A stretch of 64,000 nt of DNA from Nitrosopumilaceae archaeon (GTDB lineage Archaea; Thermoproteota; Nitrososphaeria; Nitrososphaerales; Nitrosopumilaceae). The notes under the pieces were generated by a model. The model worked only from the letters and a program-made list of their open reading frames with translations, had not been told where the DNA came from and did no database searches. The stretch spans positions 736,001 through 800,000 of the forward strand of contig CBDCCK010000002.1 of NCBI GenBank assembly GCA_965214835.1, given 5' to 3'. Position numbers and translations under genes: made by a program. Of the stretch, positions 14,767 to 33,018 are shown piece by piece (within the stretch, counting starts at the first letter, position 1; each line of letters starts with the position of its first letter).

Positions 14767-14771
14767 CCACA

Positions 14772-14788
14772 CCCTTTTCTTTTTTTTG
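14772..14788 (+). terminator. Oligo-T archaeal terminator
   Basis: Pyrimidine/T run a few bases after the stop at 14766. Confidence 0.5.
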
Positions 14789-14900
14789 TACCCATGCTTG
14801 TAAAAAATGTCTTGAAAGCTCTATTTCACCCCAGATGTCACGGTGTCATTCCGCTAGATACCACGACGTGCCTGATTGAAAACGACATGAAGCAACACTA

Positions 14901-16616: not shown

Positions 16617-16691
16617 TACTGTAAGGAAAACCGCCGACGGCAGACTTGAAAGGCACAACCAAGACGACCCAAATTCACGATCTGTGCATGA

Positions 16692-17231: not shown

Positions 17232-17373
17232 ATCGTTGGGTTGAAACCATGAACCCTAAATACCATTCCACGACCTAATTCAAAGATCGATTGGTCTGGA
17301 GTTGCAGGACTGACCGTCATGACCTGCGAGTTTGAGCAAATTTCAGGCTGTCATGATAACTGATGATGATTTT

Positions 17374-17480
17374 GTGAACTACCAACGACTAAAGCCGTTG
17401 GCTTCCTCGTTCAACGAGCCGGCTTGACCATGGCGATTTGTCATGACCAGAGGCCTTCTCTCCGGAGGCGTGACTTTCCC
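17374..17480 (-). mobile_element. IS200/IS605- or IS607-type right end (TnpB omegaRNA scaffold-like remnant), no tnpB gene
   Basis: Minus strand GGGAAAGTCACGCCT...GGCTCGTTGAACGAGGAAGCCAACGGCTTTAGTCGTTGGTAGTTCAC: terminal hairpin plus TCAC, typical of these ends. Confidence 0.7.
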
Positions 17481-17635
17481 GCGTCCCACAGACAAGGATC
17501 CAAGAAAGGAGGCGTACTCGGGCAAGAAGAAGAGCTTTACGCGCAACGTCCAGGTACTGGCCGACAAGAGGGACCTGACGATGTATGCAAGCGAGTCGGC
17601 TCCCGGAAGCGCGCACGACCTCACCATGATAAGGG
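17481..17635 (+). pseudogene. Internal fragment of the IS5-like transposase
   Basis: RPTDKDPRKEAYSGKKKSFTRN...PGSAHDLTMI, homologous to ~15885-16040. Confidence 0.85.
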
Positions 17636-19044
17636 ACAACTCGCTTTCTACGCTGCCCCTGCGGCAGATAATTCCGGATGATGACGCCAACTGGCTGAAC
17701 CAGACAGACAACGACTTTGATGAATTGGTTCCAGTCATAGATACGGATGGCGGAACTTCGCTGTTTAGGACACTGTTGATGGGATCAACGTCAGGTCGAG
17801 ACGAGTGGGTATGTGACTTTACTAAATCATCACTTCAGAGCAAGATGAAATACTTTGCTAAATTTTACAATGACACAATTAAAAAATATAATGAAGAGAA
17901 ACTAGATGGTGATCTAAAAGACTGGGTGGATAAGAAGATCAAATGGGGTAGGGAAATTATTAAACGATTGAAGCATGGAGATGAAATAGTCTACTCTGAC
18001 ACCAACATCAAAAATCTACTGTATAGACCGTTTGTATTAAAATTTCATTATTTTGATAGGATAATAGTCGATTATCAAAGAAAGTTCCCACAAATTTTTA
18101 AAGATAACAACCCAAACAAAATCATTTGTTTTGTAAACCCGCAAAATAATTCAACATTCCAAACCTTGGCAACTAATCAGATTGCAGAATATCATCTAAC
18201 TGACACGACACAATGTATTCCGCTTCATACATACGATATGGATAATTACAGTTCCAGCAATGTGACAGAATCTGGACTAGAACTATTCCAAAAACATTAC
18301 AAGGACAAAACGATAACTGATGAAGACATATTCTACTACACCTACGCCATCTTCAGCGATCCAAAATACTCTGGCAAATACAAGTTTAACCTGCAGCGCA
18401 AATTTCCGCGAATCCCGCTGGCTGAGAATTTCAGGGAGTGGGTGAGGATAGGTCAGAGGCTGTACATCCTGCATACGGAGTTTGAGGATGCAGAGCCTTA
18501 CGCGTTGCACAGAATAGACAAAAAAACCCGCAAAAATGGCACCAAGCTAAGACTGAAAAAATCCGACGAAAACCAATCTGTGATAATAATAGATGAGCAG
18601 ACCGTCCTTGACGGTGTCCCAAGCCAGGCTTTGGAATACAAGCTCGGTTCAAAGTGTGCACTGGAGTGGATTCTGGAGTTCTACAAGGAATCAAAGAACG
18701 TCATAAAAGAAAAGTCATGCGATGATCCCGCAATACGCGAGAGATTCAACACGTACAGGTTTGCAGACCACAAGGAGCATGTCATAGACCTGCTGCAAAG
18801 GGTTACCACGGTCTCGGTAGAGACAGTGAAGCTGCAGCGAGAACTCGAAAGAATGCCCTGGGGGGAACAGCCAAAACCATACCTTGGAAAATCTGACGTC
18901 AGTGTCGACAAGGCAACGAAAAAACCGCAAATGAGGAAATCCAAACAGCCCAAAAAGCCAAAAGTCGCAAAGAAGAACAGAAGGAAATCCGGGCTCCAGG
19001 ACACGCTTGACGGATCCGGGCAGAAAAGGCTGTTTGGGAACTAG
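17633..19044 (+). pseudogene. Orphan C-terminal (specificity) part of a Type ISP-like methyltransferase, cassette A
   Basis: DNSLSTL..WLNQTDNDF..LYRPF..FPRIP..CALEWILEFYKE..GQKRLF; open frame; paralogue of 27371-30565. Confidence 0.85.
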
Positions 19045-19126
19045 GCCACGGCAGAGTCACATACAGCCCAGCTCCCTAAGTTAACGCCAGAAACCCCTAA
19101 CTTAACACCCCGCTGAAAAGCCCCGA

Positions 19127-19164
19127 AGATTTACCAGAGTACTAAACTGTACTCTGGTAAATCT
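19127..19164. repeat. Perfect 16-bp inverted repeat with a 6-bp spacer (left border site)
   Basis: AGATTTACCAGAGTAC-TAAACT-GTACTCTGGTAAATCT. Confidence 0.95.
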
Positions 19165-19287
19165 CCGAGAGTTTTCAGAGACCTGTTAAATTAGGGTGCT
19201 GGGGTGTTAAATTAGAGTGTTAGAGACGTCGGCAAGAACAAACGATTGATGGCACGCTACAAGCGTTGGCTTCGGGAATGTTGAAGG

Positions 19288-21159
19288 TCAGAACAGCCTT
19301 TTCTGGCCGGTTCCGTCAAGCGTGTCTTGGAGCTTGGATTTCTTTGATTTCTTGGGTTTTTTAGGCTGTTGTCTGGTTTTTTTTGTTTGCAATTTTCTCA
19401 TCGTCTTGTCATTGCCGGCATCAGACTTCTTAAGGTGCAGTTCCGGCTGCTTCCCCCAAGGCATGTTTTCAAGATCCCGCCGCAGATTCATCGTCTCGAC
19501 TGAGATACTGGTGACCTTTTGTAGTAGGCCTATGACATGTTCCTTGTAATCTGCAAACCTGTACGTGTTGAACTTTTCCCGGATTTTGGGATCATCGCAG
19601 GATTTGTCGGATATGACGTTCTTTGATTCCTTGTAGAATTCTAAGATCCATTCCAGTGCGCATTTTGAGCTGAATTTGTATTCCAATGCTTGATCAGGTA
19701 CATCCTCAAGTATGGTCTGCTCATCAATCACTATTTTCAATGACTCGCTTTCTGATTTTTTTAAACTCAATTTGGTGCTGTTCTTGTTTGTTTTCCTGTC
19801 TGTGCGTTTTAACGGAAATGGCTCTGCCTCTTCAAAATGGACATGAAGGTCATAGAGTTTTTTGCCTAGCCGTACCCATTTCGAAAAATTTTCTGCGAGA
19901 GGTATTCTTGGGAACTTGCGCTGGAGATTGAACTTGTATTTTTCTTGGTATTTCGGATCATTGAAAATGGCATAAGTATAGTAGAATACGTCCTCGTCTG
20001 TTATCGTTTTGCTCCCGTAGTGTTTTTGAAATAACTCCAAACCAAAGTCAGTAATGTTGCTGTGACGCTTGCCCTCGTCATCGTATGTGTAAAGCGGGAT
20101 GCACTGAGTGCCAACAACACAATCAAGATCCATGATTTTATCAGTTGCCAATGTCTGAAATAACACATTAGTTTTTGGATTGGCAAAACCAATTAGCCTG
20201 TTTGATCTAGAATTTTTGAAGATGTTAGGAAATTTTCTCTGCCTATGTGTTATTATTTTATCAAAATAATTCTTCTTCAATACAAATGGCCTATACATTA
20301 CGTCTTTGATGTTGGATTTTGAATATGCGATTTTATTTCCACGTTTTATATGCTTAAAGAAATCCTCGGTCCACTTGATTTTTTTATCTGCCCAGTCTTT
20401 TAGACTAACCGCTAGGTTTTCTTCATCATATTTAGAAAGTGTTTTGCTGTAAAAATCAACAAAATATTTTATCTTGTTTTCAAGCGATGTTTGGTCAAAA
20501 TCATACACCCATTCGTTCCTGTTTGATGCCAGTCCCATAGACAGTACTCCAAATATGGAATTTTCTTTATCAGACACGATCGGAACCAGTTTTTTAAAAT
20601 CATTGTCAGTCTGGTTCAGCCAGACCGCATCCTCGTCGGGCACTATCTCCCTTAGCTGCAGGGTAGAAAGCGAGTTGTCCGCAAGCCATTTTAGCTTAGC
20701 TTCACTTTTCATATAGTCTGCAATTTCTGTGTATCTAATCTCAGATTTTTCTTCACCCGTTTTGATAAAAAAGGATATGGTTACACCAACCTTGATGGTG
20801 TCTCGAAACACGTTGCCTTTCTGTTTGCGGCGTTCCTCGCCTGATGTACGAGCATTTCCCTTCAGGTTGACAGTATAGATGTAATCAAACTCTTCAAACA
20901 CCGACCTCCTGAACCCATCGTCTGACTTTGCGTCAAGAAAGGAGTTGTTGCTCACAAATATGACCATGCCGTTGTTCTTGATGCGCTCGCTTGCCCACTT
21001 GAGAAAGCGCTTGTACATGTCATACTGCTTATCCTTGTTCCCTACAGTGGAATTTTTGACGTACGTTTCTTCTATTTTCTTATCAAGGTCAGGATATTTG
21101 TCAGCAGGATTTGCGTCGTTAAAGCTTACCTGGACCGCGTTGTACGGCGGGTTTCCCAA
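19288..21159 (-). pseudogene. 5'-truncated alternative C-terminal half of the Type ISP-like methyltransferase (from GNPPY to stop), cassette B
   Basis: Open frame; homology to the full gene begins abruptly at TTGGGAAACCCGCCGTAC; lacks the SAM-binding motif I. Confidence 0.9.
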
Positions 21160-22330
21160 AACTCGCCTTAGTATGTGTGAGCATATCCAGAACACAGTTA
21201 ATCTGTTGCGGTGTTGCCCGCTCTAAGATCTCCTGTATTTGCTGTTTCGGTTCTGATCTAGAAATTACACCCACCTGATCCAAGTATTCCTCGGATCTTG
21301 CAAAGGCATCACTCATTTCATTTAGCAAAACTTCTGGAAGGATCCCCTTGTTTGTGGTGTATCTTGATTCGATGGTGCCTTTATGCCCCATGAAGAAGAC
21401 TCGGAAATCATGCGCAATCTTTCCTTTAGACTCTGCTATTAGCAGCTGTGTGTCAAAATATGCACGTAGCACATACGGCCTCCACCCAAATTTGGGTCGG
21501 AGCGTATTGCGTATTTTGTCGCTTATTCGTTGTGTTGGAAGGAACGCCTTTTGCGATCTTCTCCAAGCATGTACTTCACTATGATCGTTGGGGGATATTA
21601 CGGGTGAGTTCTCGTCCAGATTCTCCCCAGACGCAAGTCTGTCGTTTAGATACGTCACTAGCTGTTCTGTTGCTTGACATGTGGAGAATGTAAAGTACTG
21701 GTGTCCTGCCTTTGACAATTCACGTCTTACGATGATTCGGTTTGGCGTCCGGATGCATTTTACTGTTCCATGTAAAATCGAAATATCTGGAAGATCCCTC
21801 ATCTGTAACCCATCTGTCCCTCTGTGGTTACCAATTACGCCCGGTCTCATACCTGATTTTGCCATAAGTGATATCAGCACGGATTCTCGCAATCCTGCAT
21901 TGCTGTATATGTCTGTCATTTCATGTGCATCAGGCACCCGTTCATTCTGCAGTGTGGGAGAAAACCCAGCAGATGCAATTCTTATTCGTCGCTTTACCAC
22001 CACATCAAAATGCCTGAACCAGGATTTTACGGTGTTTATATGATCCTCTATGTATCCAGGAGAATAGTTGTTGGACTCCATCATGGTTATGTGATCCTCC
22101 AGCAGGTCTGTTGCAGTCCTCAGATCGTTGACTGCAAGATCTGCAAGCTGGGAGGGAGTCATCTTGTGCATCTCACAGAACCTTCCCAGCTTCCGCAGGC
22201 GTCCCTCGGCGGTAAGAGGACTTCCACGCATCAGATTGTCATACCACCGTTGGACATCCTGATTAGATAGTAATTTTGATTTCTTGGTGTGGTTGGCAAC
22301 GTCTTTTGCACACGCTTTACGGGTTTTCAT
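21119..22330 (-). CDS. Tyrosine recombinase/integrase (archaeal type)
   Basis: SGMRPG (R), ELSK (K), PYVLR (H/YxxR), FMGH (H), RYT (Y). Confidence 0.9.
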   Translation of the reverse strand: MKTRKACAKDVANHTKKSKLLSNQDVQRWYDNLMRGSPLTAEGRLRKLGRFCEMHKMTPSQLADLAVNDLRTATDLLEDHITMMESNNYSPGYIEDHINTVKSWFRHFDVVVKRRIRIASAGFSPTLQNERVPDAHEMTDIYSNAGLRESVLISLMAKSGMRPGVIGNHRGTDGLQMRDLPDISILHGTVKCIRTPNRIIVRRELSKAGHQYFTFSTCQATEQLVTYLNDRLASGENLDENSPVISPNDHSEVHAWRRSQKAFLPTQRISDKIRNTLRPKFGWRPYVLRAYFDTQLLIAESKGKIAHDFRVFFMGHKGTIESRYTTNKGILPEVLLNEMSDAFARSEEYLDQVGVISRSEPKQQIQEILERATPQQINCVLDMLTHTKASFGKPAVQRGPGKL

Positions 22331-22400
22331 ACGGATTGGTTTTAGATGCCTAATCTTATCCTTATGCGTGACAGGGCATCCACTGTTAAAAAATAAGGCA

Positions 22401-23744
22401 TCAGGAAAGCAGTTTCATCCAGCAGCTGTTTTTTCCATTTGACAGCCAGCTGAATCCGTGCAGACGTAGTATATCATTGATTTCCCGCCAGATGTGCTTG
22501 TCAATCCATGCCCTGGGAGATATTTTGATAGAATCCCCCTCGTTCACAATTGAAACTTTGCTAATTCTCTTTCCCAAATTGCTTGTAAAACTCGGTGTCG
22601 TCATCGACTGTTTTATCAGGTCCAAATACTTGTCGTTTCCAAGTCCAAGCTCGATCCCTGATGCCTGAGCCGGAGTCCTGCCGTCAAGCCCCTGATGCGG
22701 TTTTACAAAATTGTGGTTTATTTTCAGCAACTCTGCAAAGTCCTGTGCTGACTCGTCATTGCCAAGGCCGCGTCTTGCCTTTAGGTTCTCTCTGATCTCG
22801 TTGTGATACCTCTCTATGGGCCTGTTTGCAAACCCGTCCCTGATGGATTTTGTTTTGACATGTGCTGTCATTTCTTTGAATTCTTTTCGCATTGCCTCCT
22901 GATACGAGTTTAAGGCATCTGTAATGACATAGTTAGGATACTTGGGTATCAGCTTCTTACCGCTTGCTATGATTCTTCTTGCATCTGCAATCTCGCGTCT
23001 CTTGGAGACTTCGGTAGCAATCAGAAATCGGGTCTTGGGATCAATGATGCTCCACAACCAGTCATAGAATCCCTTTCCAGTCTTCTCTGTGTTTTTTACG
23101 TTCAGCGTCATCTCATCCAAAGACCATACATCACCAAGCGTTGGACAAAATGACTCCACGTATTCTTTGATCAGTTGGGTGTATTTTTTTATCCAATTTC
23201 TAACGGAGACGTAACTGATCTTAATTCCGTGGACGGAATTGATGTGTCTTGAAATGTTTCTGTACGAGACGCCTGACATGACTAGGTTGATTGATTCGGA
23301 TATTATCTTTGGATCAGACGACATCTTTGAAAACCCGCTTTCTCCAAGGTTGAACCTATAGCCGCATTGCTTGCATTTGTATAGTTGTCTCTTTGTATCA
23401 TCCTTGAGAATTCTGAACCCAGACTTGATTATTGTAGTCGAATAACATTTGGGACAGATTCTTGGCTGTTCCGTCTTTTCAATCCTATTTTGGGTCTTGA
23501 TGTTGTCCTTTAGCATTATGCAACATATGATATGCTTGCAATGCTTGTCGTCTTGTGTTCTGAGCCGGTTATGAAAATCCGGACACTCGCATGTCCATAT
23601 GTCTATGTCATGCAGTTTTTTTACGCTATATTCCTTGTCGGAGTTTTGTGATTTTACTACATAGTGGTTCTTTGTTATCTTTCTGACCGAGTTGACCTTT
23701 GAGAGGATCTGGACTGCTTTTTCATCCCTACTTGTATACTTCAT
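22401..23744 (-). CDS. IS6-like DDE transposase/integrase with an N-terminal SWIM finger and Zn ribbon
   Basis: WTCECPDF..CKHI (SWIM), CPKC..CKQC, WSLDEM, IIDPKTRF, ITDAL, NRPIERYH, NFVKPHQGLDGRTPA. Confidence 0.85.
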   Translation of the reverse strand: MKYTSRDEKAVQILSKVNSVRKITKNHYVVKSQNSDKEYSVKKLHDIDIWTCECPDFHNRLRTQDDKHCKHIICCIMLKDNIKTQNRIEKTEQPRICPKCYSTTIIKSGFRILKDDTKRQLYKCKQCGYRFNLGESGFSKMSSDPKIISESINLVMSGVSYRNISRHINSVHGIKISYVSVRNWIKKYTQLIKEYVESFCPTLGDVWSLDEMTLNVKNTEKTGKGFYDWLWSIIDPKTRFLIATEVSKRREIADARRIIASGKKLIPKYPNYVITDALNSYQEAMRKEFKEMTAHVKTKSIRDGFANRPIERYHNEIRENLKARRGLGNDESAQDFAELLKINHNFVKPHQGLDGRTPAQASGIELGLGNDKYLDLIKQSMTTPSFTSNLGKRISKVSIVNEGDSIKISPRAWIDKHIWREINDILRLHGFSWLSNGKNSCWMKLLS

Positions 23745-23829
23745 ATTGTATAGATAACGGTATATCTATAAAACATTATCTGCCTAAAGCCAGATATCCT
23801 TTATATATGTGGATTCACATATTCGAATA

Positions 23830-23988
23830 TTGGCAAGGAAAAAAACAAGTCTCACTTTGGATGAGAAAATCTGGAATAACTTTCAGGCATACGCATTAAA
23901 AAAACACGGAAACACTCGTAACGCCAACACAGAACTGGAGCTTGCCATGTATGAATACATTAAGAATCACCCTGTGGAGAAAAAATAG
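23830..23988 (+). CDS. Small ribbon-helix-helix-like regulator
   Basis: Own translation (TTG start): MARKKTSLTLDEKIWNNFQAYALKKHGNTRNANTELELAMYEYIKNH.., 52 aa, divergent from the transposase and upstream of the RM genes. Confidence 0.65.
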   Translation: MARKKTSLTLDEKIWNNFQAYALKKHGNTRNANTELELAMYEYIKNHPVEKK

Positions 23989-24074
23989 AATGAATGTTAA
24001 CCGCAAATCGTCAAGGATGCCTGTATTGGGCGGTAAAAATCTAAAAATTCAAAAACAAGCCAAACGCGTGATTC

Positions 24075-27000
24075 ATGGGTAACGGTGAACTAATCATGGG
24101 TAGTGAGGATACGGTAATTGACAATGAGAGTGTCGTACTTTTAGATCAACTAAGAGAGATACTGCCAGATACGAACAGGGCAAGCATTGCGGTGGGCTAT
24201 TTCTTCATCTCTGGATTCAGCGCAATAATGGGTAGCTTAAACAAGATAGAGTCAAGCAGCGACCCAAACCACGTTATACGGCTGTTGATCTCACCGACTA
24301 CAAACCGGGCCACGGCAGAGGCGTTACTTGCAAGCAACGAGTCTTATGAAACAGCAAGAATGAGGGGCAAACAAACCGGTTCTGAGGAAAGAGGAAAAAA
24401 GACCGCAAAAGAAGAGGTCAAAAAAACGCTTGAGTACATGTCGCAAACAAACGAGGATCAAAAGGCTACAGCGAAACTTGCCGAACTGATCAAAAAGAAA
24501 AAAGTGCAGGTGAAGGTATATACAAAGGATCAACTTCATGCAAAGGCGTATATTTTCGAGCTTGACAACAGACAGCTTTCAAAGATGGCAATAGTAGGTT
24601 CCAGCAACCTCTCAATGTCGGGGATAAAGGAGCATACTGAGCTTAATCTGAGAACAAATCACTCAGGCGACTCTGGCAAACTGCTAGAATGGTTTGATCG
24701 ACATTGGAACGATCCCAGCTGCCAGGAATTCACGCGGGAGATAGCTGACATCATAGATGAATCCTGGATTGCCAAACACTCGCCAAATGACGTGTACGAC
24801 AAGGCGGTTCTTCATGAGCATGAAGAACTTTTTGAAGAGCCCGACGGAGTAGATGAAAAAACACGAGAGTTGTTTGACTTTCAAAAGACGGCAGTAAGCA
24901 ACGCCATAAAAAAACTCGACAGGTATGGGGGTGTCATGATTGCCGATGTGGTGGGTACAGGCAAATCCTACATTGGTAGTGCCATTCTAAAGCATCTCAA
25001 GGAGAACAACCGCTCAAAACCACTGATAATATGCCCACCCCACCTCAAGGAGATGTGGCAGGAATACATGAAAGATTTTGACATTTACTGCCAGATAGAA
25101 TCAAGATACAAGATAGGCATGGAGGATAACATACTCTCACGCTACACAAACTGCGACGCGGTGTTGATAGACGAGAGTCACAACTTTCGCAATTCAAGCA
25201 CAAACGCATACAGGGCACTGCTTGCATTCATGGAGGAAAAGACAGAAGAGGCCAAGATAATCATGCTGTCTGCCACCCCGATATCAAACCGCATCACGGA
25301 TCTAAAGAACCAGCTAAGGCTTTTCCCAAGAGAGATGCTCTTGCAGATACCTCCCCTGAACAACACAACACTTGATGAATACTTTAAGGGATTAGACGGC
25401 CCAAAAGACGAGCTCAGAGAGGAGGCCGACACCAAGATACGGGAACTTCTCAAGTATATTCTAATCCGACGTACCCGCAAGCAGATCATGAAAAAGTATG
25501 CCAAAAAAGACGGCAAACGGTACTATCTTGAAAAGGACGGGCAACGAAAGTACTTTCCAAGAAGAGAGTTACAGAATCCAAAGGAGTACAATGTTGACAA
25601 GGTGTACAACAACTCCTTTGACATGATCCAAAGCGCGATTGAGGATCTTACCCTTGCGAGGTTTGCCCCGGGAAACTACATCAAGAAAGAATATCTGAAC
25701 GACTCTAACCCGGACCACAAAAAATATGTCGATTTGAACAGTACGACAAAGCCACTGGTTGGCATAGTTCGGACATCGCTACTCAAGAGGATGGAAAGTA
25801 GCATCATGGCGTTTGCATCCAGCGTAAAGCACTATCAGGAAGGGTACAAGGAGTTCAGAAAGCAGCTTGACAAGGGCAAGGTTCCCATCGGAAAGGACTT
25901 TCATGATGAGATATACAAGAAGATCGCATACGAGGGGGAAGACTATGACGACGAGGAGTACGAGCAGAAAATGGCAAAGATCTCATCTCAGTACGACATA
26001 GAGGCGTTTGACGTGGAACGTTGGAAGAGGGACATAGCAGAGGACATTAACCGTTTTTCAAGCATCAAGGGGAATCTGGTGTCAAAGTCCGAGTATACCA
26101 AATATGATGACAAGCTCCACACGCTGGTAAAACTGGTCAACGGAATGGACAGGGAAAAGATTCTGATCTTTTCTGAATCTGCCGTAACCGCAAAATACGT
26201 CTACGAATACATGAAAAAGGAACTAAATCCGCCTCGTCGTATTGCGCAGATTGACTCTAAACAGGGAAACAGGGAGAAAAATGTCTTGATCAGGAAGTTT
26301 GATCCGAAGAACAACAACGCTACTGCTGATGTTCCAAAAAGCGAGGAGATTGACGTGTTGATAAGCACGGACGTACTGTCTGAGGGAGTGAACTTGCAAG
26401 CTGGCAAGACGGTAATCAACTATGACTTTCACTGGAATCCCGTCAGGCTCATACAGAGAGTAGGAAGGATAGACAGGATAGGCACGCAACACGAAACTGT
26501 CGACGTGATCAATTTCCTTCCTACGGCAAAGATTGACGCGACTCTCTCGCTCAAAGAAAGGGTTGCAAACAAGATTGAGACCATCCGCAGGATAATAGGA
26601 CATGATCAGCAGATACTAGAGTCAACAGAAGTATTGGACGAAAAGGGCGTGCTTGACATTTATGCTGGTAACGAGGACGTACTGGATTCTGATGTTGCAA
26701 GCATCATTGATATGGGCGAATCAAAGTCAGAACAAGACGCAGACAATATAAAAAGAGATGAGACAAGAAGACAACATATCGAGCAGATGCCCTTTGGCAT
26801 AAGAAGCGTTTCAGGCACGGGTAAGCTTCTGATAGCGTGCGAGGCACGGGAGATTGTAATGGATCAGCGTGGCCGCCACATGTCTGAACGTCCGTTTAGA
26901 AGACACTACGAAATAACGAAGGACAGCATTACTCAGATCTGGCAGTCATCCTTCCTGAACGAGTTGGGGAAAAACCAAGGAAACCTATCCGGCACGGAGG

Positions 27001-27374
27001 ATTCCACATATAACGAGCTTGTGGCTGAAGCGTGGAAAAAGTTCGATAAGGACATGAAAAATTCCAGTGCAAAAAAGACCATGCTAAAGCACCAGCAATA
27101 CTTTGATAAAAAATTAAGACAGATGTCCGAAAGTCAGGACTTGGGCCGTCGCGCAATGTCCATGCTGCCGTTCGTAGGACAGAGAATGCTTACAAATCTC
27201 CAGCCGTACAAGAGGCTAACCGAGCTTCGCAAGGAGATTGACAGGAATCCCGACACTGATGACAAGATGATAATCGAGGGGTTGGAAACGATCAGGGATA
27301 AATACGGACAGACGGAATATGAAAAGACGATAAGCAAGCCTCGTATACTGTATAGCATGATGGTGGCCAAATGA
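24075..27374 (+). CDS. PLD-family nuclease plus SF2 (SNF2-like) helicase, putative restriction subunit
   Basis: AVGYFF, LHAKAYIF..IVGSSNLS..ELN (PLD); ADVVGTGKS, DESH, SATP, TDVLSEGVNLQ, WNPVRLIQRVGRIDR. Confidence 0.9.
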   Translation: MGNGELIMGSEDTVIDNESVVLLDQLREILPDTNRASIAVGYFFISGFSAIMGSLNKIESSSDPNHVIRLLISPTTNRATAEALLASNESYETARMRGKQTGSEERGKKTAKEEVKKTLEYMSQTNEDQKATAKLAELIKKKKVQVKVYTKDQLHAKAYIFELDNRQLSKMAIVGSSNLSMSGIKEHTELNLRTNHSGDSGKLLEWFDRHWNDPSCQEFTREIADIIDESWIAKHSPNDVYDKAVLHEHEELFEEPDGVDEKTRELFDFQKTAVSNAIKKLDRYGGVMIADVVGTGKSYIGSAILKHLKENNRSKPLIICPPHLKEMWQEYMKDFDIYCQIESRYKIGMEDNILSRYTNCDAVLIDESHNFRNSSTNAYRALLAFMEEKTEEAKIIMLSATPISNRITDLKNQLRLFPREMLLQIPPLNNTTLDEYFKGLDGPKDELREEADTKIRELLKYILIRRTRKQIMKKYAKKDGKRYYLEKDGQRKYFPRRELQNPKEYNVDKVYNNSFDMIQSAIEDLTLARFAPGNYIKKEYLNDSNPDHKKYVDLNSTTKPLVGIVRTSLLKRMESSIMAFASSVKHYQEGYKEFRKQLDKGKVPIGKDFHDEIYKKIAYEGEDYDDEEYEQKMAKISSQYDIEAFDVERWKRDIAEDINRFSSIKGNLVSKSEYTKYDDKLHTLVKLVNGMDREKILIFSESAVTAKYVYEYMKKELNPPRRIAQIDSKQGNREKNVLIRKFDPKNNNATADVPKSEEIDVLISTDVLSEGVNLQAGKTVINYDFHWNPVRLIQRVGRIDRIGTQHETVDVINFLPTAKIDATLSLKERVANKIETIRRIIGHDQQILESTEVLDEKGVLDIYAGNEDVLDSDVASIIDMGESKSEQDADNIKRDETRRQHIEQMPFGIRSVSGTGKLLIACEAREIVMDQRGRHMSERPFRRHYEITKDSITQIWQSSFLNELGKNQGNLSGTEDSTYNELVAEAWKKFDKDMKNSSAKKTMLKHQQYFDKKLRQMSESQDLGRRAMSMLPFVGQRMLTNLQPYKRLTELRKEIDRNPDTDDKMIIEGLETIRDKYGQTEYEKTISKPRILYSMMVAK

Positions 27375-30300
27375 GTTTTGAGGATCGCCTGGAATCCCTT
27401 CAAAGGACGCTGAAATTAAGCGGATATGAGAATATACGCCATTTCGTTGACATAAGCGCGCTAGTAAGGGACGAATCAGTAAGCGACTGTGAGATAATAG
27501 CGCGCAAGGATTTCTACAACATCTTATATCTGGAGGCAAAGTCAAACTGGCGCGGCATTGCCACCGACGTGGCCAAAAAGCAGTCAAAGCCATGCCTTGT
27601 CATCACTGGCTACGGGGAATCACACCTGATCCTATCCACCATCAAGGATTACTTTACAAATCCAAGACCGCGCCATGTCATCATCGACACAAGATCCAAG
27701 ACACATTCTTTTGACGGATTTGCAAAGCTGATCAAGGTAAGGCCGGAGGACGATTTTGTATCTATAGATGAGCAAGTACACCATGCGTTTGATGAATTTG
27801 CGGCGTACGAGGAGGCGCTTGACGAATTCGGCGAGAACCTCAAAAACGCAATAAAAAACACACGGGAAATCATAGTAAAGGCATCAAAAAACAACAAGAG
27901 ATACGACGCAGAGTCTGAACAGTTTCTGGAGATGTGTCACAAGGTGATAAGCAACAAGCTCAAATCAGACGACATTACAGAGATGATTCTTCAGCATGTC
28001 CTGACATACAAGATCTTCTCCCTGATATACGACGAGCACGAACTCCACAGCACCAATGCAATAGCACGGTCACTTGAGGGCATAATAGATACGCTTGGAG
28101 TCGATATGGAGCAGATTAGTACCGGCTACCAGACGACAAAACTGGTAGCCGAATCGCTTACAGATTTTGCCGAAAAGCAGGACTTTCTCAAACGCGTGTA
28201 TGAGACGTTTTATGCAGAGTATGACCCAAAAAACAAGGACAGTTGGGGAATAGCATACACCCCATCAGAGGTTGTGGATTTCATGGTAAGGTCGACCGAC
28301 CAGCTGCTTGAAAAACACTTTGGAAAATCAATGTCCGATGATTGTGTTACCCTACTTGATCCGGCCACCGGTACGGGAACATTCATTACACAGATCCTGA
28401 GGCACCTGAAGCACAACTCTGTCAAAACCAAATACGAAAATGACATATTTGCAAACGACATATCGTTACTGGCATACTACATTGCTGCGCTGAACATAGA
28501 GAATACATACCAAGAGATAACAGGGCAAGTCAAAGAGTTTGAGAACATATGCTGGATGGATACCCTTGCTACTGGCACAAAGGACTTTGGGAAGGTAAGC
28601 ACGTATTTTGATGAGCAGGACAATGTAAAGAGGATCTCAAAGCAGCAAGTAAAGGACATATGTGTGGTCTTGGGAAACCCGCCGTACAACGCGGTCCAGG
28701 TAAGCTTTAACGACGCAAATCCTGCTGACAAATATCCTGACCTTGATAAGAAAATAGAAGAAACGTACGTCAAAAATTCCACTGTAGGGAACAAGGATAA
28801 GCAGTATGACATGTACAAGCGCTTTCTCAAGTGGGCAAGCGAGCGCATCAAGAACAACGGCATGGTCATATTTGTGAGCAACAACTCCTTTCTTGACGCA
28901 AAGTCAGACGATGGGTTCAGGAGGTCGGTGTTTGAAGAGTTTGATTACATCTATACTGTCAACCTGAAGGGAAATGCAAGACTGTCTGGTGATGCATGGA
29001 GACGCGAGGGGGATAAAATATTTGGCCAGAGTGCGCGTGTTGGCATATCCATATCTTTTTTTATAAAAACGGGAGAAAATCATTCAGAGATACGATACGT
29101 GGAAATAGACGATTATTTGAAGAGGGAAGATAAGCTAAAATGGCTTGCGGACAACTCGCTTTCTACCCTGCAGCTAAGGGAGATAGTGCCCGACGAGGAT
29201 GCGGTCTGGCTGAACCAGACTGACAATGATTTTAAAAAACTGGTTCCGATCGTGTCTGATAAAGAAAAATCTGTCTTTGAATTGCTTTCAATGGGTTTAA
29301 CATCTAATAGAGACGAATGGGTGTATGATCTAGGCCGGAAATCACTTGAAAACAAAATGAGGTATTTCGTTGATTTTTACAACAAATCAGTCGCACAATA
29401 TCAGAATGAACATCCTAAGGATACAGAATTCAAAGACTGGGCAGATAAAAAAATCAAGTGGACCGAGGATTTCTTTAAGCATATAAAACGTGGAAATAAA
29501 ATCGCATATTCAAAATCCAACATCAAAGACGTAATGTATAGGCCATTTGTATTGAAGAAGAATTATTTTGATAAAATAATAACACATAGGCAGAGAAAAT
29601 TTCCTAACATCTTCAAAAATTCAAGCCGTAATAGACTGATTAATTTTACAAATCCTACACCAAAAAGCCGATTTCATGCGCTTGTGTCAGACAAGATCGT
29701 TGATCTTCATTATGTTATTGACACTCAATGCATTCCGCTTTACACATATGATGATGGGGGCAAGCGTCACAGCAACGTCACTGACTTTGGTTTGGAGTTA
29801 TTTCAAAAACACTATAGGAACAAAGCGATAGCAGACGAGGACATATTCTACTACACCTATGCCATTTTCAATGATCCGAAATACCAAGAAAAATACAAGT
29901 ACGATCTGCAGCGCAAATTCCCAAGAATTCCGCTGGCTGAGAATTTTGGTGATTGGGTGAAAATAGGCAGGAAACTGTATGATCTCCATGTCAACTTTGA
30001 ATGTGTCAAAAAGTATCCATTGAAGCGAACAGACAAAAAGACTGCAAAAAATCAAACCCGACTCCTGCTGAAAAAACCGAAAGAGGAAGACAACTCTCAG
30101 GATTTTACCATAATGATTGATGATAATACGATGCTTGAAGGAGTGCCAAAAGAAACGTTGCAATACAAATTCAGCTCAAAATGCGCACTGGAGTGGATCT
30201 TAGAATTCTACAAGGAATCAAAGAACGTCATATCCGACAAATCCTGCGATGATCCCAAAATCCGGGAAAAGTTCAACACGTACAGGTTTGCAGATTACAA

Positions 30301-30565
30301 GGAACATGTCATAGGCCTACTACAAAAGGTCACCAGTATCTCAGTCGAGACGATGAAGCTGCGGCGGGATCTTGAAAACATGCCTTGGGGGAAGCAGCCG
30401 GAACTGCACCTTAAGAAGTCTGATGCCGGCAATGACAAGACGATGAGAAAATTGCAAACAAAAAAAACCAGACAACAGCCTAAAAAACCTAAAAAACCCA
30501 AGAAATCAAAGAAATCCAAGCTCCAAGACACGCTTGACGGAACCGGCCAGAAAAGGCTGTTCTGA
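27371..30565 (+). CDS. N6-adenine DNA methyltransferase with a Type ISP-like C-terminal specificity domain
   Basis: GIAYTP..VVDFMVRS, LDPATGTGTF, GNPPY, NLKGN, RDEWVY, YRPF, FPRIP, ALEWI; ATGA overlap with the helicase stop. Confidence 0.92.
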   Translation: MSFEDRLESLQRTLKLSGYENIRHFVDISALVRDESVSDCEIIARKDFYNILYLEAKSNWRGIATDVAKKQSKPCLVITGYGESHLILSTIKDYFTNPRPRHVIIDTRSKTHSFDGFAKLIKVRPEDDFVSIDEQVHHAFDEFAAYEEALDEFGENLKNAIKNTREIIVKASKNNKRYDAESEQFLEMCHKVISNKLKSDDITEMILQHVLTYKIFSLIYDEHELHSTNAIARSLEGIIDTLGVDMEQISTGYQTTKLVAESLTDFAEKQDFLKRVYETFYAEYDPKNKDSWGIAYTPSEVVDFMVRSTDQLLEKHFGKSMSDDCVTLLDPATGTGTFITQILRHLKHNSVKTKYENDIFANDISLLAYYIAALNIENTYQEITGQVKEFENICWMDTLATGTKDFGKVSTYFDEQDNVKRISKQQVKDICVVLGNPPYNAVQVSFNDANPADKYPDLDKKIEETYVKNSTVGNKDKQYDMYKRFLKWASERIKNNGMVIFVSNNSFLDAKSDDGFRRSVFEEFDYIYTVNLKGNARLSGDAWRREGDKIFGQSARVGISISFFIKTGENHSEIRYVEIDDYLKREDKLKWLADNSLSTLQLREIVPDEDAVWLNQTDNDFKKLVPIVSDKEKSVFELLSMGLTSNRDEWVYDLGRKSLENKMRYFVDFYNKSVAQYQNEHPKDTEFKDWADKKIKWTEDFFKHIKRGNKIAYSKSNIKDVMYRPFVLKKNYFDKIITHRQRKFPNIFKNSSRNRLINFTNPTPKSRFHALVSDKIVDLHYVIDTQCIPLYTYDDGGKRHSNVTDFGLELFQKHYRNKAIADEDIFYYTYAIFNDPKYQEKYKYDLQRKFPRIPLAENFGDWVKIGRKLYDLHVNFECVKKYPLKRTDKKTAKNQTRLLLKKPKEEDNSQDFTIMIDDNTMLEGVPKETLQYKFSSKCALEWILEFYKESKNVISDKSCDDPKIREKFNTYRFADYKEHVIGLLQKVTSISVETMKLRRDLENMPWGKQPELHLKKSDAGNDKTMRKLQTKKTRQQPKKPKKPKKSKKSKLQDTLDGTGQKRLF

Positions 30566-30688
30566 CCTTCAACATTCCCGAAGCCAACGCTTGTAGCGTG
30601 CCATCAATCGTTTGTTCTTGCCGACGTCTCTAACACTCTAATTTAACACCCCAGCACCCTAATTTAACAGGTCTCTGAAAACTCTCGG

Positions 30689-30724
30689 AGATTTACCAGA
30701 GTACTAAACTGTACACTGGTAAGT
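30689..30724. repeat. Right border site (arm-TAAACT-imperfect arm)
   Basis: AGATTTACCAGAGTAC-TAAACT-GTACACTGGTAAGT. Confidence 0.9.
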
Positions 30725-30765
30725 TAACGGGAGCTGATTTCTCCTGGAAGGCGTCGGGAGCCGGA
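30711..30765 (-). mobile_element. End remnant of the IS6-like element
   Basis: CTGGTAAGTTAACGGGAGCTGATTTCTC matches 10382-10410 and the reverse complement of 31700-31733. Confidence 0.75.
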
Positions 30766-30918
30766 ACCGGTGGCTATCCCTCATGCTAACGGCCGGGTGA
30801 TGTCGGAGGAGGTGACCTAGTACAAAAGAAGGCTTCTTGGTTTTGTCTGGATTTGGCTCAGCGTCTCATTTGGCATCTTGGGTTGGCCGGTTGATGCTAG
30901 TCACGCACAGAATATACG

Positions 30919-31200
30919 CTAGTCTAGAATGACTGGTCTCCAGTCAGACAGATTACGGGAGTTATAATTGCACTCATCCTGATCGTTGTACATCCATTCG
31001 TTATTGTCTAATATCACAACGCCGCCAAAGAGGCTCTTGGAGTTCTTTATGTATCGCGTAAGCGCTTCGGCCTTGTATTTGGCCTCTTTTGCAGTAAATC
31101 CTTCCTTGGTATCGAACAGCCCTACCTTGCCATTCTCCATGCGGATTATAAAATCAAGCCGGAGCAAATCCGGATGAGTATTTCCTGACGAAGGTATCAA
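30919..31200 (-). pseudogene. C-terminal fragment of a Type III-like restriction (Res) endonuclease
   Basis: DFIIRMENGKVGLFDTKEGFTA...KAEAL..Y...GGVV; PD-(D/E)xK-like; truncated. Confidence 0.55.
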
Positions 31201-31228
31201 AAACTCACTGTATTTCTTCCGCGCTAGC

Positions 31229-31737
31229 TGGATTCCGAGACACGGTTCTGGCTGGCCCAGACGGTCTCAGAACACAAGGGAAACGACGACGTGTCCCCGA
31301 TGTTCAGGGATGCCAAGAGGAAGGCAAGCAAAATCCCAAAGATGCTGATATCGGACAGGGCTGCAAACTTTCACCATGCATGGAGGGAGCAGTACCGATC
31401 CAAGAACTTCCTCCACAAGGACACCGAACATCACAGGAACATCCATCTCTCCGGCGACATGAACAACAACCAGATGGAGTCATTCAACGGCAACACACAG
31501 GGCCTGCGAGAAGGTGATCCGTGGGATTAAGAGGGACGATTCTGCCATACTCAGGGGGATGCAGATCCACCACAACTACATCAGGCCCCATCAGGGTCTT
31601 GACGGCGACATGCCGGCAGACAGGGCCGGAATCAGAATAATGGGAGAAAACAAGTGGAAGACCATAATCCAGAACGCCCATACCAGCTCCCGACGCTTTC
31701 CGGGAGAAATCAGCTCCCGTTAGCTTACCAGTCCCCA
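31229..31737 (+). pseudogene. Frameshifted IS6-like transposase 3' half with its element end
   Basis: DSETRFWLA, LISDRAANF, NNNQMESFNG, HNYIRPHQGLDG; ends TTACCAGTCCCCA. Confidence 0.8.
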
Positions 31738-32076
31738 TGAGCAATATGCCTGAAATAGAAAGCGAATATTCTCCGACGTACAAACGCATACCTGTGGCGG
31801 GGATTTTTGGAGGCATACGGCCATTTGGCGTCGAAGTCGTCCTGTATTCTGAAAGCATGGACATAAAAAACATTGGAAACCCATCCTCCGTCAAACAGTA
31901 GAACATCAATCAAGCGTACCGCCAAATGCGAACTCCTCATCGATCCAATGCAGATGAGGAGTATACACAAGTGGCTGGAAAATAAAATCAAAGAGTATGA
32001 GGAAACGTTCAGTACAATCCCCTCACCAGAAGAAGTAGAAGGTAGAGCAAAAAGAAGCAAGGATCCCCGCCGATAG
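31737..32076 (+). pseudogene. Frameshifted hypothetical protein
   Basis: MSNMPEIESEYSPTYKRIPVAGIFGG.. continues in another frame (..CELLIDPMQMRSIHKWLENKIKEYE) across an A6 run. Confidence 0.5.
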
Positions 32077-32361
32077 CCCCGGCGTCATGCAGTGCCACCT
32101 GCATGATGCAGGACAACCCCGCACAGGCGGCGTTCGTGGTGCTGGCTGAAAGACCTTCAAGTTCGGGATCCGCTCCCGATGTACTACACGATACCGTGAA
32201 GCTGGCAGTCCCCCCCGGTATCCTGGGGGCTGCCGCCTGATTTACTAGGATTTTTGAAGCCATGTGGTGTCGTCCAGATCGGGTGTGAAAGAGATTGGAG
32301 TCCAAAAGACGTGCGGGTCGATCCCGGCAGGGGGAATCACGCGAGTCCTCCATCTGGGCCC

Positions 32362-33018
32362 CTAGCACCTCGAGTAATAGAGTACGAGCTCGTCTCCAAT
32401 CCTGCCCGTCCTCTCTAGGCGCAGCCTGGGCGAGTCCCCGACCCTTGCAAACCCGGCGCCCTGCACCAGGGAGACCGCATCGGTGCCGCCGATGATCCTC
32501 GGCGATACCGTGACTATGAGCCTGTCAAACAGGCCGTTTTTGACAAAATCCCAGTTTACGGCTCCGCCGCCCTCCACAAGCAGGGTCCTGATTTTTTGCG
32601 AGGCAAGCCTTCTCAGGAGCTGCCGTATGCTGACCTGCCTGTCCCCGCAGACAATCACCGTGACCGGGAGTCTTTCCAGCCTCCTCAGGTTCTTCTGGGT
32701 GGCAGACTTTGAGACTGCAATGATCGTGGGAACCTGCCCCGCGGTTCTGATGATCCTTGATCCAGATGGGATGGTTCCCCCCGAGTCAAGCACTATGCGC
32801 GTGGGATTTTTTCCCCTTGCGTGCCGCACCGTAAGGAGGGGATCGTCCCGCCGCAGCGTATTGCCACCTATCAGGATTGCGTCTGCCCTGGAGCGAAGCC
32901 TGTGTACCCTTGCCAGATCCCGCTTGGAGGAGATCCCCGAGGCCCCGCTCCTAGTCGCAATCTTTCCATCCACCGACATTGCAGCCGTGATGATCACGGT
33001 GGGCCTAGATCCTGCCAT
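32362..33018 (-). CDS. arfC: 2,5-diamino-6-ribosylamino-4(3H)-pyrimidinone 5'-phosphate reductase (RibD C-terminal/ArfC)
   Basis: AAMSVDGKIA, VHRLRS..DAILIG, DDPLLTVR, LLVEGGG. Confidence 0.92.
   Translation of the reverse strand: MAGSRPTVIITAAMSVDGKIATRSGASGISSKRDLARVHRLRSRADAILIGGNTLRRDDPLLTVRHARGKNPTRIVLDSGGTIPSGSRIIRTAGQVPTIIAVSKSATQKNLRRLERLPVTVIVCGDRQVSIRQLLRRLASQKIRTLLVEGGGAVNWDFVKNGLFDRLIVTVSPRIIGGTDAVSLVQGAGFARVGDSPRLRLERTGRIGDELVLYYSRC

Follow-up and report, generated by a model that had tools for sequence, protein, structure and literature searches.

The window (the whole stretch of 64,000 nucleotides of Nitrosopumilaceae DNA analysed here) contains a two-gene restriction-modification (R-M) locus with further copies of the specificity half of its MTase gene. 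The features, in window coordinates, are:

17443..19044, plus strand: cassette C, a third TRD copy recognised by Pfam, tail-to-tail with cassette B
19076..19215, no strand: tail-to-tail junction of the 3' flanks of C and B, around a shared hairpin
19288..21162, minus strand: silent cassette B, an in-frame copy of MTase residues 433-1064
20852..21159, no strand: left arm of the inverted repeat, exact over 308 nt
21119..22330, minus strand: predicted divergent tyrosine recombinase (P0001), 403 aa
21160..28669, no strand: the 7510 nt expected to invert after a crossover in the 308-nt repeat
22401..23744, minus strand: DDE transposase (IS6/IS1-like), 447 aa, between recombinase and helicase
24075..27374, plus strand: PLD (HKD) nuclease-SNF2-type helicase fusion, 1099 aa, its stop overlapping the MTase start
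27371..30565, plus strand: MTase-TRD gene, the expressed copy, 1064 aa; cassette A is the part from 28667 onward
28670..28977, no strand: right arm of the inverted repeat, exact over 308 nt, starting at codon L434 of LGNPPY
29131..30704, no strand: eight more blocks identical between A and B, alternating with variable segments V1-V5; on the A side 29131-29254, 29432-29622, 29780-29814, 29858-29900, 30162-30192, 30194-30357, 30359-30478 and 30509-30704

The MTase gene was found where the original prediction had placed it. Its product consists of an N-terminal 145 amino acids without known family, an ISP coupler, a gamma-class N6-adenine MTase (NPPY at residues 436-439) and a Type_ISP_C specificity domain, in that order (Pfam: PF22240, PF02384, PF07669, PF18135; PADLOC: REase_MTase_IIG, 7e-187). 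The nearest solved chains are 7lo5 (5e-190), then LlaGI (3e-130) and LlaBIII (7e-112). Residues 1-150 gave no significant match, the best being PAP2 (E 0.088). The preceding gene has Pfam matches to PLDc_2, SNF2-rel_dom, ResIII and Helicase_C and a PADLOC match to C3a139 “HKD+Snf2” (2e-72). Because its stop overlaps the MTase start, the PLD/SNF2 protein is presumed to be the motor/nuclease partner of the MTase, and in eight of nine relatives' loci a helicase homologue lies immediately 5' of the MTase homologue. Relatives also carry true single-chain ISP genes (L270, L273).

Cassette B is a 5'-truncated, open copy of the MTase gene on the minus strand. It lacks the AdoMet-binding N-terminal part and has Pfam matches to the Eco57I tail and Type_ISP_C. 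The ORF as called (19288-21195, minus strand, 635 aa) runs 11 codons beyond 21162. B is open across 624 codons and 83% identical to A at the amino acid level, with indels of 1, 4, and 3 amino acids that all keep the frame. The full inverted repeat spans 311 nt (20852-21162 / 28667-28977), 308 nt of them exact. Both the truncated copy and the shared 308-bp block had been reported in the original prediction, and we find 28670-28977 to be the reverse complement of 20852-21159, as it said; the A/B identity extends exactly to the outer bounds it gave (19149 and 30704). The eight further exact blocks (124, 191, 35, 43, 31, 164, 120, and 54+142 nt), whose B-side partners run from 20575-20698 down to 19149-19344, had been missed, as had the third TRD cassette (17443-19044).

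Are such blocks expected by chance? The A/B alignment has 289 differing columns out of 1914. Spread at random, these would leave a longest exact run of 37.5 nt on average, and none of 2000 permutations gave an exact run above 72 nt, versus the 308 nt observed. No synonymous change between A and B falls in the 25-codon bins that lie wholly within exact blocks, while outside the blocks pS is 0.67 (dS ~1.67) and dN/dS is 0.17. The variable segments are old and selected, and both cassettes are under purifying selection. No short core site common to the exact blocks was found.

We computed the products of a crossover at each of the nine blocks. Every one yields an intact ORF of 1056-1064 amino acids and an open reciprocal cassette. 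In the 308-nt repeat, the crossover flips the 7510-nt segment and creates an in-frame hybrid of 1056 amino acids, in agreement with the predicted inversion of a ~7.5-kb middle. Within it lie the recombinase, transposase and helicase genes together with the 5' part of the MTase gene, all of which had been named as lying between the arms. An RHH regulator, also named, was not recovered: the sole candidate is a 59-aa ORF (23809-23988) with no Pfam match at E<=10 and no 59-aa counterpart among the ORFs in the spacer of L082, a second genome described below. The locus combines three hallmarks of a programmed inversion, namely one full gene with an inverted partial copy (B) that lacks the MTase N-terminal part, frame-keeping inverted repeats within the coding sequence (the nine exact blocks), and a recombinase gene abutting the repeat, for which a catalytic role is predicted.

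The ORF that adjoins the repeat has no match in Pfam (E<=0.01), NCBIfam, PADLOC or PHROG. In an hhalign profile comparison with 14 PF00589-bearing ORFs, it scores a probability of 98.4% (E 5e-15). Residues R162, K207, Y286xxR289, H316, and Y324 are invariant across 26 homologues and line up with the matching boxes of the PF00589-bearing ORFs. From the profile comparison and this invariant R-K-YxxR-H-Y set we infer a divergent tyrosine recombinase, as had been proposed; for one homologue (P0072), the language-model neighbours are PF00589 clusters with scores of 0.97-0.99. Compared with L082 the gene is shifted by 1 nt, which gives it a tail of 17 extra codons and places its 3'-terminal 41 nt within the left repeat arm. 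In both loci verified at the DNA level (the window and L082), the gene ends inside the repeat or within ~10 nt of its outer edge. Its family is a large one: this genome alone yields 16 matches. In a FastTree phylogeny of 62 recombinase rows, 10 of the 11 R-M-linked recombinases fall into one 23-row clade (support 99), and none of 500 label shuffles was as clustered. Among 80 metagenome loci with relatives of 50-60% identity, none has an R-M system of this kind beside the recombinase, so most members of the family are ordinary integrases.

Cassette C is 61% identical to A in amino acids across residues 589-1064, with a dS of ~1.8 to both A and B and no exact match to either longer than 27 nt. 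Its 5' end has been replaced by a DDE_Tnp_4 fragment, and it is probably a decayed relic. The hairpin of the C/B junction recurs 3' of A (30680-30715). The surrounding region is rich in IS elements, and the DDE transposase gene (22401-23744) occurs once in this genome and is not found in L082. One may ask whether the whole locus is a static relic, left by an ancient inverted duplication or by the decay of two element copies, with a pseudogene cassette, one recent gene conversion and no switching today. The decay of a TRD copy in C (an IS fragment at the 5' end, exact matches of at most 27 nt) would fit such a history, and so would an IS-like gene inserted between recombinase and helicase in an IS-rich region. 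Cassette B would not, being open over 624 codons with a dN/dS of 0.17 in its variable parts, and we regard a relic as distinctly improbable.

The original prediction had suggested a search for the same layout in related Nitrosopumilaceae, and it is present in L082, a Nitrosopumilus MAG chromosome that differs from the window in composition at the level of genera. The GC content of that locus is 37% versus 51% in the window, the flanking genes differ, and the proteins share 78%, 57%, and 64% identity with those of the window (tblastn best segments; the MTase is at 64%). The gene order is the same, cassette(-)-Int(-)-Hel(+)-MTase(+). The exact repeat of L082 is 307 nt long and starts at the same LGNPPY codon as the repeat of the window; it is followed by a variable segment of ~150 nt and an exact block of 127 nt. 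Two genomes with MTases at only 64% identity have thus retained one block plan (307/308 nt exact, ~150 nt variable, 124/127 nt exact); for this, homogenisation must have recurred in both lineages, which again speaks against a static relic. The outer repeat edge falls inside the longest stretch of codons identical in the two MTase genes (14 codons, residues 428-441). At this edge 24 nt are identical in the window and L082; six homologues without a cassette match at only 13-18 of the 24.

Among 12 other archaeal Hel+MTase loci examined at the DNA level, one has the inverted cassette (L082) and two have the recombinase (L082 and G117b). In G117b, the recombinase adjoins Hel-MTase and there is no cassette. 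Conversely, at L273, which is another of the family's ISP genes, a TRD cassette lies inverted with repeats of 486 and 770 nt and no recombinase match nearby, so long repeats can exist without a recombinase. These two loci would be expected if general homologous recombination or gene conversion of the host switched the segments, the recombinase being the integrase of a mobile island that carries the R-M system. Exact blocks of 120-308 nt with no common short core motif are good substrates for general recombination, and the module neighbourhoods differ between the window and L082, as expected of a mobile island. In addition, recombination at spnIII is, according to the title of the report, independent of all known pneumococcal site-specific recombinases (PMC6620402). 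On the other hand, a general mechanism does not account for R-M-linked recombinases that form one clade, for a recombinase gene that ends at or inside the outer repeat edge in both DNA-verified loci, or for the unusual nucleotide conservation at this edge. Neither direct repeats nor a tRNA target of an integrated element were found around the window locus or the L082 locus, which argues against the island. On balance we consider host recombination unlikely, if less so than a relic.

The four public sequencing runs that we used are all Logan k-mer contigs, which end at the repeat edges. Because k-mer contigs break at repeats, no read or contig shows the alternative junction; a static relic would look the same. 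The middle (21160..28669) is a single contig of 7570 nt in runs X3-X5. The word depth of the repeat block relative to this single-copy middle is 2.1x in X4, 1.9x in X5, and 4.0x in X3. Since the depth in X4 and X5 is about twice that of the middle, the repeat is truly present twice. The A-type and B-type variable pieces are similar in depth (e.g., 10.6 and 15.7 in X4), which is what a genome with both copies should give. In X3, the depths of cassette and repeat exceed the expected ratios. If the genome is metagenome-derived, as it may be, the identical blocks could in principle be a collapse or chimera of two strains' alleles, and the X3 depths would be in line with that; given the depths in X4 and X5, the similar depths of the A-type and B-type pieces, and a layout assembled independently in L082, an assembly artefact is scarcely credible.

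Cassette-sized ORFs (~580-635 aa), full-length ORFs and close homologues of the recombinase are also found in a protein database on contigs of equal size, e.g., 13722, 164739, and 314800. Judged by these equal contig sizes rather than by coordinates, the whole layout seems to recur on several metagenome contigs. Eight pairs were compared; in four of them (V)LGNPPY marks the cassette start and opens an exact block of 100-104 amino acids, followed by a variable segment and a second exact block. Expressed and silent V1 alleles are interchanged between the window and contig 88006 on one side and contig 13722 on the other: the allele expressed in the former is silent in the latter, and vice versa. 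Moreover, the full-length gene of contig 88006 combines a V1 of the window's A type with V2 and V3 of its B type, a mix that a crossover in block 2 would produce. Alleles of the variable segments therefore occupy the expressed copy at some loci and the silent copy at others. Such differences in allele position are not expected of a static relic.

The proposal of an invertible specificity switch is in accord with the open, selected cassettes, the in-frame crossovers, the recombinase, the conserved layout and the allele exchange. We therefore favor, as probable, a two-gene R-M system whose specificity half is switched by programmed inversion, with the adjacent recombinase as the likely catalyst. 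Gene 1 encodes the PLD nuclease/SNF2 helicase and gene 2 the coupler-MTase-TRD protein. The chromosome has two alternative C-terminal halves in opposite orientation, A joined to the gene and B silent. Recombination at any of the nine exact block pairs would flip the segment between them, and whichever pair is used, the recombinase, the helicase and the 5' part of the MTase gene lie within that segment. The flip would fuse the MTase N-terminus, in frame, with segments from B and leave those displaced from A as the silent cassette. Crossovers at different blocks would mix the five variable segments, giving perhaps up to 32 combinations. The divergent tyrosine recombinase next to the repeat, which belongs to a clade that travels with the module, probably catalyses the flip. 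As no short core motif is common to the blocks, it may be guided by homology, in the way described for the integrase of pTN3. Inversion presumably takes place in living populations, the recombinase presumably catalyses it, and the A and B variants are expected to recognise different motifs. It is tempting to go further and speculate, tentatively, that a dedicated archaeal tyrosine recombinase clade invisible to Pfam drives homology-guided, multi-site inversions of a mobile cassette-recombinase-helicase-MTase module, so that populations would contain up to 32 restriction/methylation specificities encoded at a single locus. If true, multi-site inversion would be an archaeal phasevarion and a bet-hedging defence of Nitrosopumilaceae against viruses.

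Phase-variable restriction systems alter virus resistance and genome-wide methylation in clonal bacterial populations. Specificity switching by inversion, familiar from bacteria, has hardly been documented for archaea; the window locus and its conserved copy in L082 provide a concrete, testable case in Nitrosopumilaceae, with a candidate recombinase clade missed by domain databases. If switching is confirmed, methylation-based binning, strain typing and models of virus-host dynamics in these archaea must allow several methylation motifs per genome.

Among the closest known systems are bacterial Type II R-M genes of the Cj0031-like kind that adjoin a PLD + SNF helicase gene and for which programmed inversions have been confirmed with long reads, e.g., in Bacteroides ovatus CP083813.1 (Milman et al. 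2023, NAR 51:553, PMC9881135). By the description of those loci, the window shares with them the target (the part of a large MTase-TRD gene that sets specificity), the PLD + SNF helicase partner, and inverted repeats in the coding sequence that give alternative alleles. The locus is an archaeal member of a system type already published for bacteria. The view in the original prediction that such a system had not been described therefore holds for archaea only; the scan of Milman et al. is described as limited to bacteria, with archaea left out. The recombinase of the window belongs to a thaumarchaeal clade undetected by Pfam.

The Type I hsdS invertons, SpnIII (ivr) of Streptococcus pneumoniae among them (PMC4948785, PMC7672463), likewise have a silent inverted specificity cassette, several repeat pairs and an adjacent tyrosine recombinase, and they switch methylation specificity. 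They shuffle a separate HsdS subunit of a Type I system, whereas in the window the C-terminal half of the MTase polypeptide itself would be exchanged, with the remainder of the R-M system on the segment that flips. In BREX type 1 PglX (Lacticaseibacillus rhamnosus), according to the account of Milman et al. (2023), inversions also occur in a large gamma-class MTase gene with a recombinase beside the cassette, but only the middle part is swapped, via two nested inversions. Over the coupler, N6-MTase and TRD, an end-to-end alignment is obtained with 7lo5 (residues 145-998), identified as DrdV in bioRxiv 10.1101/2024.04.12.589305, and with 5ffj and 4xqk (LlaGI/LlaBIII). The window MTase has the coupler, the gamma-class N6-adenine MTase with NPPY and the Type_ISP_C domain of Type ISP enzymes; in place of their single chain with an Mrr-type nuclease and an SF2, RecA-type helicase there are two genes, with the PLD/HKD nuclease and SNF2-like motor on a separate protein. 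Type IIL (MmeI/DrdV-like) enzymes join an N-terminal PD-(D/E)XK nuclease to the MTase-TRD and use no motor; the window MTase is closest to DrdV in its MTase-TRD part, its residues 1-150 match nothing significantly, and DrdV has no helicase partner, while the window MTase has a presumed one. Finally, the pTN3 integrase of Thermococcus nautili is described as recombining identical segments down to 104 bp and causing inversions (PMC8371274). It is, by that description, also an archaeal tyrosine recombinase, and its use of homology would fit a locus that has long stretches of identity and lacks a core site; the inversions it causes are accidental and affect large parts of the chromosome, whereas a gene switch is proposed for the window.

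The locus lies in a genome of 3.22 Mb, in two contigs, with archaeal SSU and LSU rRNA. Its expressed MTase-TRD gene has a 3' half (cassette A) that is repeated in inverted orientation as a silent copy (B), and a third TRD copy (C) lies further left.

Features of the locus in the window (coordinates, strand, description)
17443-19044, +, cassette C: residues 589-1064 at 61% identity, with the 5' end replaced by a DDE_Tnp_4 fragment
21162-19288, -, copy B: residues 433-1064 only; open frame 19288-21195, 635 amino acids
20852-21162 and 28667-28977, inverted repeat: 311 nt by repeat search
21119-22330, -, recombinase P0001: divergent tyrosine recombinase by profile comparison and catalytic residues
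22401-23744, DDE transposase gene, between the recombinase and helicase genes
24075-27374, +, helicase gene: fusion of a PLD/HKD nuclease with an SNF2-type helicase (PADLOC "HKD+Snf2", 2e-72)
27371-30565, +, MTase-TRD gene: 1064 amino acids; ISP_coupler, N6_Mtase/Eco57I and Type_ISP_C domains

The top PADLOC model for the MTase-TRD gene is a Type IIG enzyme. The closest solved chain is 7lo5 (E 5e-190, residues 145-998), reported to be the Type IIL enzyme DrdV (bioRxiv 10.1101/2024.04.12.589305), followed by LlaGI and LlaBIII; no family match was found for residues 1-150. The helicase gene, upstream, overlaps the start of the MTase gene. Eight relatives contribute nine loci with an MTase homologue, and in 8 of the 9 a helicase immediately precedes it. 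The pair forms a conserved operon. Because a separate PLD/SNF2 gene precedes the coupler-MTase-TRD gene, we classify the predicted restriction-modification (R-M) system as a split relative of Type ISP/IIL enzymes with a PLD nuclease, and not as Type ISP proper. For the transposase gene, we found no terminal repeats and no second copy in the genome. The original prediction had also placed an RHH regulator between the cassettes; no support for it emerged on checking, and it was dropped from the locus. An Rfam search of window positions 15000-33000 matched no family.

The full MTase gene and the truncated open copy do lie on opposite strands as predicted, with open reading frames of 1064 and 635 amino acids. 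Since B lacks the AdoMet-binding part, it cannot be an MTase by itself. The predicted identical block of 308 bp also proved exact (28670-28977 is the reverse complement of 20852-21159), and its first residue is the L of LGNPPY. When the 289 differing columns of the 1914 in the alignment were placed randomly (n = 2000), the longest exact run averaged 37.5 nt and never exceeded 72 nt, so the repeat is far beyond chance.

The 308-nt repeat is the first of nine exact blocks shared by A and B (308, 124, 191, 35, 43, 31, 164, 120 and 196 nt), which are separated by variable segments (V1-V5 below); the last block extends 142 nt beyond the stop codon. Outside the blocks, pS is 0.67 (dS about 1.67) and dN/dS is 0.17, an A-B divergence as old at synonymous sites as that from cassette C (dS about 1.8). 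By contrast, 25-codon bins wholly inside blocks have zero synonymous changes, and every A/B indel is in frame. Together, the high dS, the low dN/dS, the in-frame indels and the unchanged blocks indicate that the variable segments are old alleles maintained as working protein sequence, and that the blocks are held identical by recurrent recombination. An in-silico crossover at each of the nine blocks yields an intact hybrid of 1056-1064 amino acids and an open reciprocal cassette; the expected in-frame joining of the MTase N-terminus to the other half thus holds for all nine. No short core site common to the blocks was found.

Cassette C, which shares no exact match longer than 27 nt with A or B, is read as a probable decayed relic. 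To the left of the locus are IS66-family (11981-13555) and IS5-type DDE_Tnp_4 (15077-16423) transposase genes; the region of the latter contains a 160-nt piece (15886-16045) of which a second copy, at 17481-17640, lies where the open reading frame of cassette C begins. A possibly MITE-like repeat, dispersed and about 150 nt long, occurs in the window at 31582-31735, 10378-10531 and 30715-30764 and has 34 matches in the genome. One of its fragments abuts the end of the 3' flank common to A and B, and another (G000:C2:2241913-2241963, on the contig that carries the window) abuts a stray TRD fragment at 2241974-2242327. The latter and a pair at G000:C2:854707-855575 are further TRD fragments outside the locus (86%, 71% and 66% amino acid identity); a stop codon lies inside one of the pair and inside the last fragment.

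Is this layout found elsewhere? Among 80 loci that a search with an MTase alignment retrieved from species-representative genomes, an inverted C-terminal copy, besides that of the window's kind, was found only in L082, a locus on a Nitrosopumilus MAG chromosome.

Features of locus L082 (coordinates, strand, description)
3260-5107, -, cassette
5116-6279, -, recombinase, 78% identical to that of the window
6630-10001, +, helicase, 57% identical to that of the window
10001-13162, +, MTase, 64% identical to that of the window

The gene order is cassette, recombinase, helicase and MTase, without a transposase. GC content is 37%, versus 51% in the window, and the flanking genes are unlike. The block plan is similar: 307 nt exact, about 150 nt variable and 127 nt exact, versus 308, about 153 and 124 nt in the window, and the first exact block begins at the equivalent LGNPPY codon. 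The layout sought in related genomes is thus present in a second one. The 24 nt at the outer repeat edge (TTGGG...ACGCG) are the same in the window and L082, versus 13-18 of 24 matching in six homologues without a cassette. The longest run of identical codons between the two MTase genes (14 codons, residues 428-441) spans this edge; further ones are found at residues 286, 524 and 590. This hints at nucleotide-level constraint at block edges, which we regard only as a lead. As for possible island borders, we found no tRNA adjoining the window locus; the L082 locus has two tRNAs at a distance of 4 kb, and no convincing direct repeats were found there.

Three further loci in relatives were also noted. 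In L270 (G149:C1:1058000-1077000, at 7687-12840), a single-chain Type ISP gene without a TRD (- strand; 1185-amino acid open reading frame with Mrr, helicase, coupler and MTase domains) has a TRD-only open reading frame (503 amino acids, Type_ISP_C) just upstream on the opposite strand, and a 20-nt imperfect inverted repeat (7824-7843 / 11283-11302) lies at both break points. This locus has the appearance of an ON/OFF inversion in its OFF state. L273 (G153:C1:2074000-2093000, at 8768-16852) has a single-chain Type ISP gene, split by a DDE_Tnp_1 insertion, together with an inverted TRD-only cassette (15249-16661), a 486-nt repeat (100%) and a 770-nt repeat (99.2%). Among same-family MTase homologues of the class sample, the closest (53% amino acid identity) is that of L055/L056 (G344:C1, merged 20429-25052); the MTase match contains a TAG stop, and the helicase gene is interrupted by a 1370-nt element present again further along the region.

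Candidate pairs of full and cassette genes also occur in a collection of 5.8 billion proteins, where homologues of cassette B fall into two size classes, full (about 1040-1070 amino acids) and cassette (about 580-635 amino acids). Three exact contig sizes are common to close recombinase homologues and cassette B homologues, namely 13722 (P0003, P0124, P0126), 164739 (P0006, P0132, P0130) and 314800 (P0021, P0133, P0143); size 88006 is common to P0123 and P0127, and 22305, 709138, 138425, 54532 and 33594 each have one recombinase and one MTase or cassette. That such entries share a contig is suggested by their equal sizes, not by coordinates. Eight full/cassette pairs were compared. In four of them (window, 13722, 164739, L082), an exact block of 100-104 amino acids, beginning with (V)LGNPPY, opens the cassette and is followed by a variable stretch and a second exact block. 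The 88006 pair has the equivalent start and is less homogenised; three pairs differ. For the expressed V1 of the window, the nearest match in 88006 is the expressed copy (78%), whereas in 13722 it is the silent one (70%). For the silent V1, it is the silent copy in 88006 (74%) and the expressed one in 13722 (74%). In the expressed gene of 88006, V1 is of the window A type (78% vs 42%), whereas V2 and V3 are of the B type (78% vs 59%; 82% vs 65%), the product expected of a crossover in block 2.

The predicted tyrosine recombinase between the cassettes (P0001) has no match in Pfam, NCBIfam or PADLOC, and PHROGs gave nothing below E 0.28. When its profile was searched against PDB sequences, the only matches were TAL-effector repeats, assembled from many sub-threshold stretches, which we took as spurious. 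P0001 has more than 2000 homologues; a few, attributed to Nitrososphaeria, are named "site-specific integrase" at source. Among 26 aligned homologues, R162, K207, Y286xxR289, H316 and Y324 are invariant. Using hhalign, the family aligns with 14 PF00589-bearing open reading frames of relatives (probability 98.4%, E 5e-15, 260 columns) so that the catalytic boxes coincide, and the language-model neighbours of the homologue P0072 are PF00589 clusters (scores 0.97-0.99). On these three lines of evidence, P0001 is assigned as a putative divergent tyrosine recombinase. Relative to L082, its gene has a 1-nt shift before the stop codon (window 21119-21170), adding 17 codons that run into the inverted repeat. 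The family has 16 matches in the genome, some of them clustered near 478-545 kb and others near 1250-1272 kb; a PF00589 search of the genome gave nothing at E<=1e-10.

We consider a programmed inversion switch to be the best-supported reading of the locus, as originally proposed, given the in-frame hybrids, the signs of selection, the L082 layout and the allele exchange. Cassettes A and B would stay fixed, facing each other across a flippable core of recombinase, helicase and MTase 5' part. Whichever block the crossover used, the N-terminus of the MTase would be joined to another combination of variable segments. P0001 is the presumed catalyst. Alternatively, general homologous recombination might catalyze the switching, as the long blocks without a common core suggest, and as does the inverted cassette of L273, near which no tyrosine recombinase match was found. 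Against this, in a tree of 62 recombinase rows built with FastTree (P0001-P0060 and those of L082 and locus L155; P0061-P0120 left out), 10 of the 11 rows labelled R-M-linked fall in one 23-row clade (support 99), and each of 500 label shuffles required more changes than observed. The 13 unlabelled rows of the clade come from contigs of at most 11.4 kb, bar one of 27 kb. This clade-level linkage, and a recombinase gene that tightly abuts the outer repeat edge, lead us to favour the recombinase. A homology-guided tyrosine recombinase, like that reported for Int-pTN3 (review PMC8371274), would reconcile both views. Other counts speak against a general rule: among 80 metagenome loci with recombinases at 50-60% identity (35 of them at least 8 kb), none had a helicase or MTase match alongside. 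Of 12 other archaeal helicase-MTase loci compared at the DNA level, only L082 has a cassette, and only L082 and G117b have a recombinase.

All seven public runs are Logan k-mer contigs; X1, X3, X4 and X5 were compared with window 21170-30800, the left arm of the repeat being omitted to avoid a repeated reference. A single 7570-nt contig covers the middle between the arms and reaches only 30 nt into either of them, so that orientation is unreadable and the runs speak neither for nor against switching. A joint on opposite strands (21170/28670) was rejected as an inversion, being the 30-nt overlap of this contig with the arms. The depth of the repeat versus the middle (25.7 vs 12 in X4; 24 vs 12.7 in X5) shows two copies of the repeat per genome in these runs. 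In X3 (window 28576-30800), the repeat is at 4.0 times the middle (356 vs 89) and A-specific pieces at 1.6-1.9 times, versus about 2 and about 1 in X4 and X5. The small second contig of the genome was also rejected as an alternative form of the locus, since the intergenic/transposase stretch 22331-24074 and the MTase match C2 only.

Invertible specificity genes are established in bacteria, for Type I hsdS (PMC4948785, PMC7672463) and BREX PglX (Milman et al. 2023, PMC9881135). The latter study, whose scan is described as limited to bacteria, also reports inversions confirmed by long reads in Cj0031-like Type II R-M genes, each next to a gene for a phospholipase D domain and an SNF helicase domain; as described there, this appears to be the same kind of system as the window locus. 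For archaea, in which Chanin et al. describe the topic as minimally investigated, these authors report 12 putative invertons from 42 data sets, and the word "inversion" has 0 occurrences in a survey of thaumarchaeal iMGEs (PMC6563490). We found no paper on archaeal invertible R-M of the ISP/IIG type; related loci may be listed in supplements (the Milman tables and the archaeal invertons of Chanin Data S2). The suggestion that such a system was undescribed therefore stands for archaea and falls for bacteria, and the window locus is best regarded as an archaeal instance of a bacterially known system, to which it adds a conserved block plan and a candidate recombinase clade.
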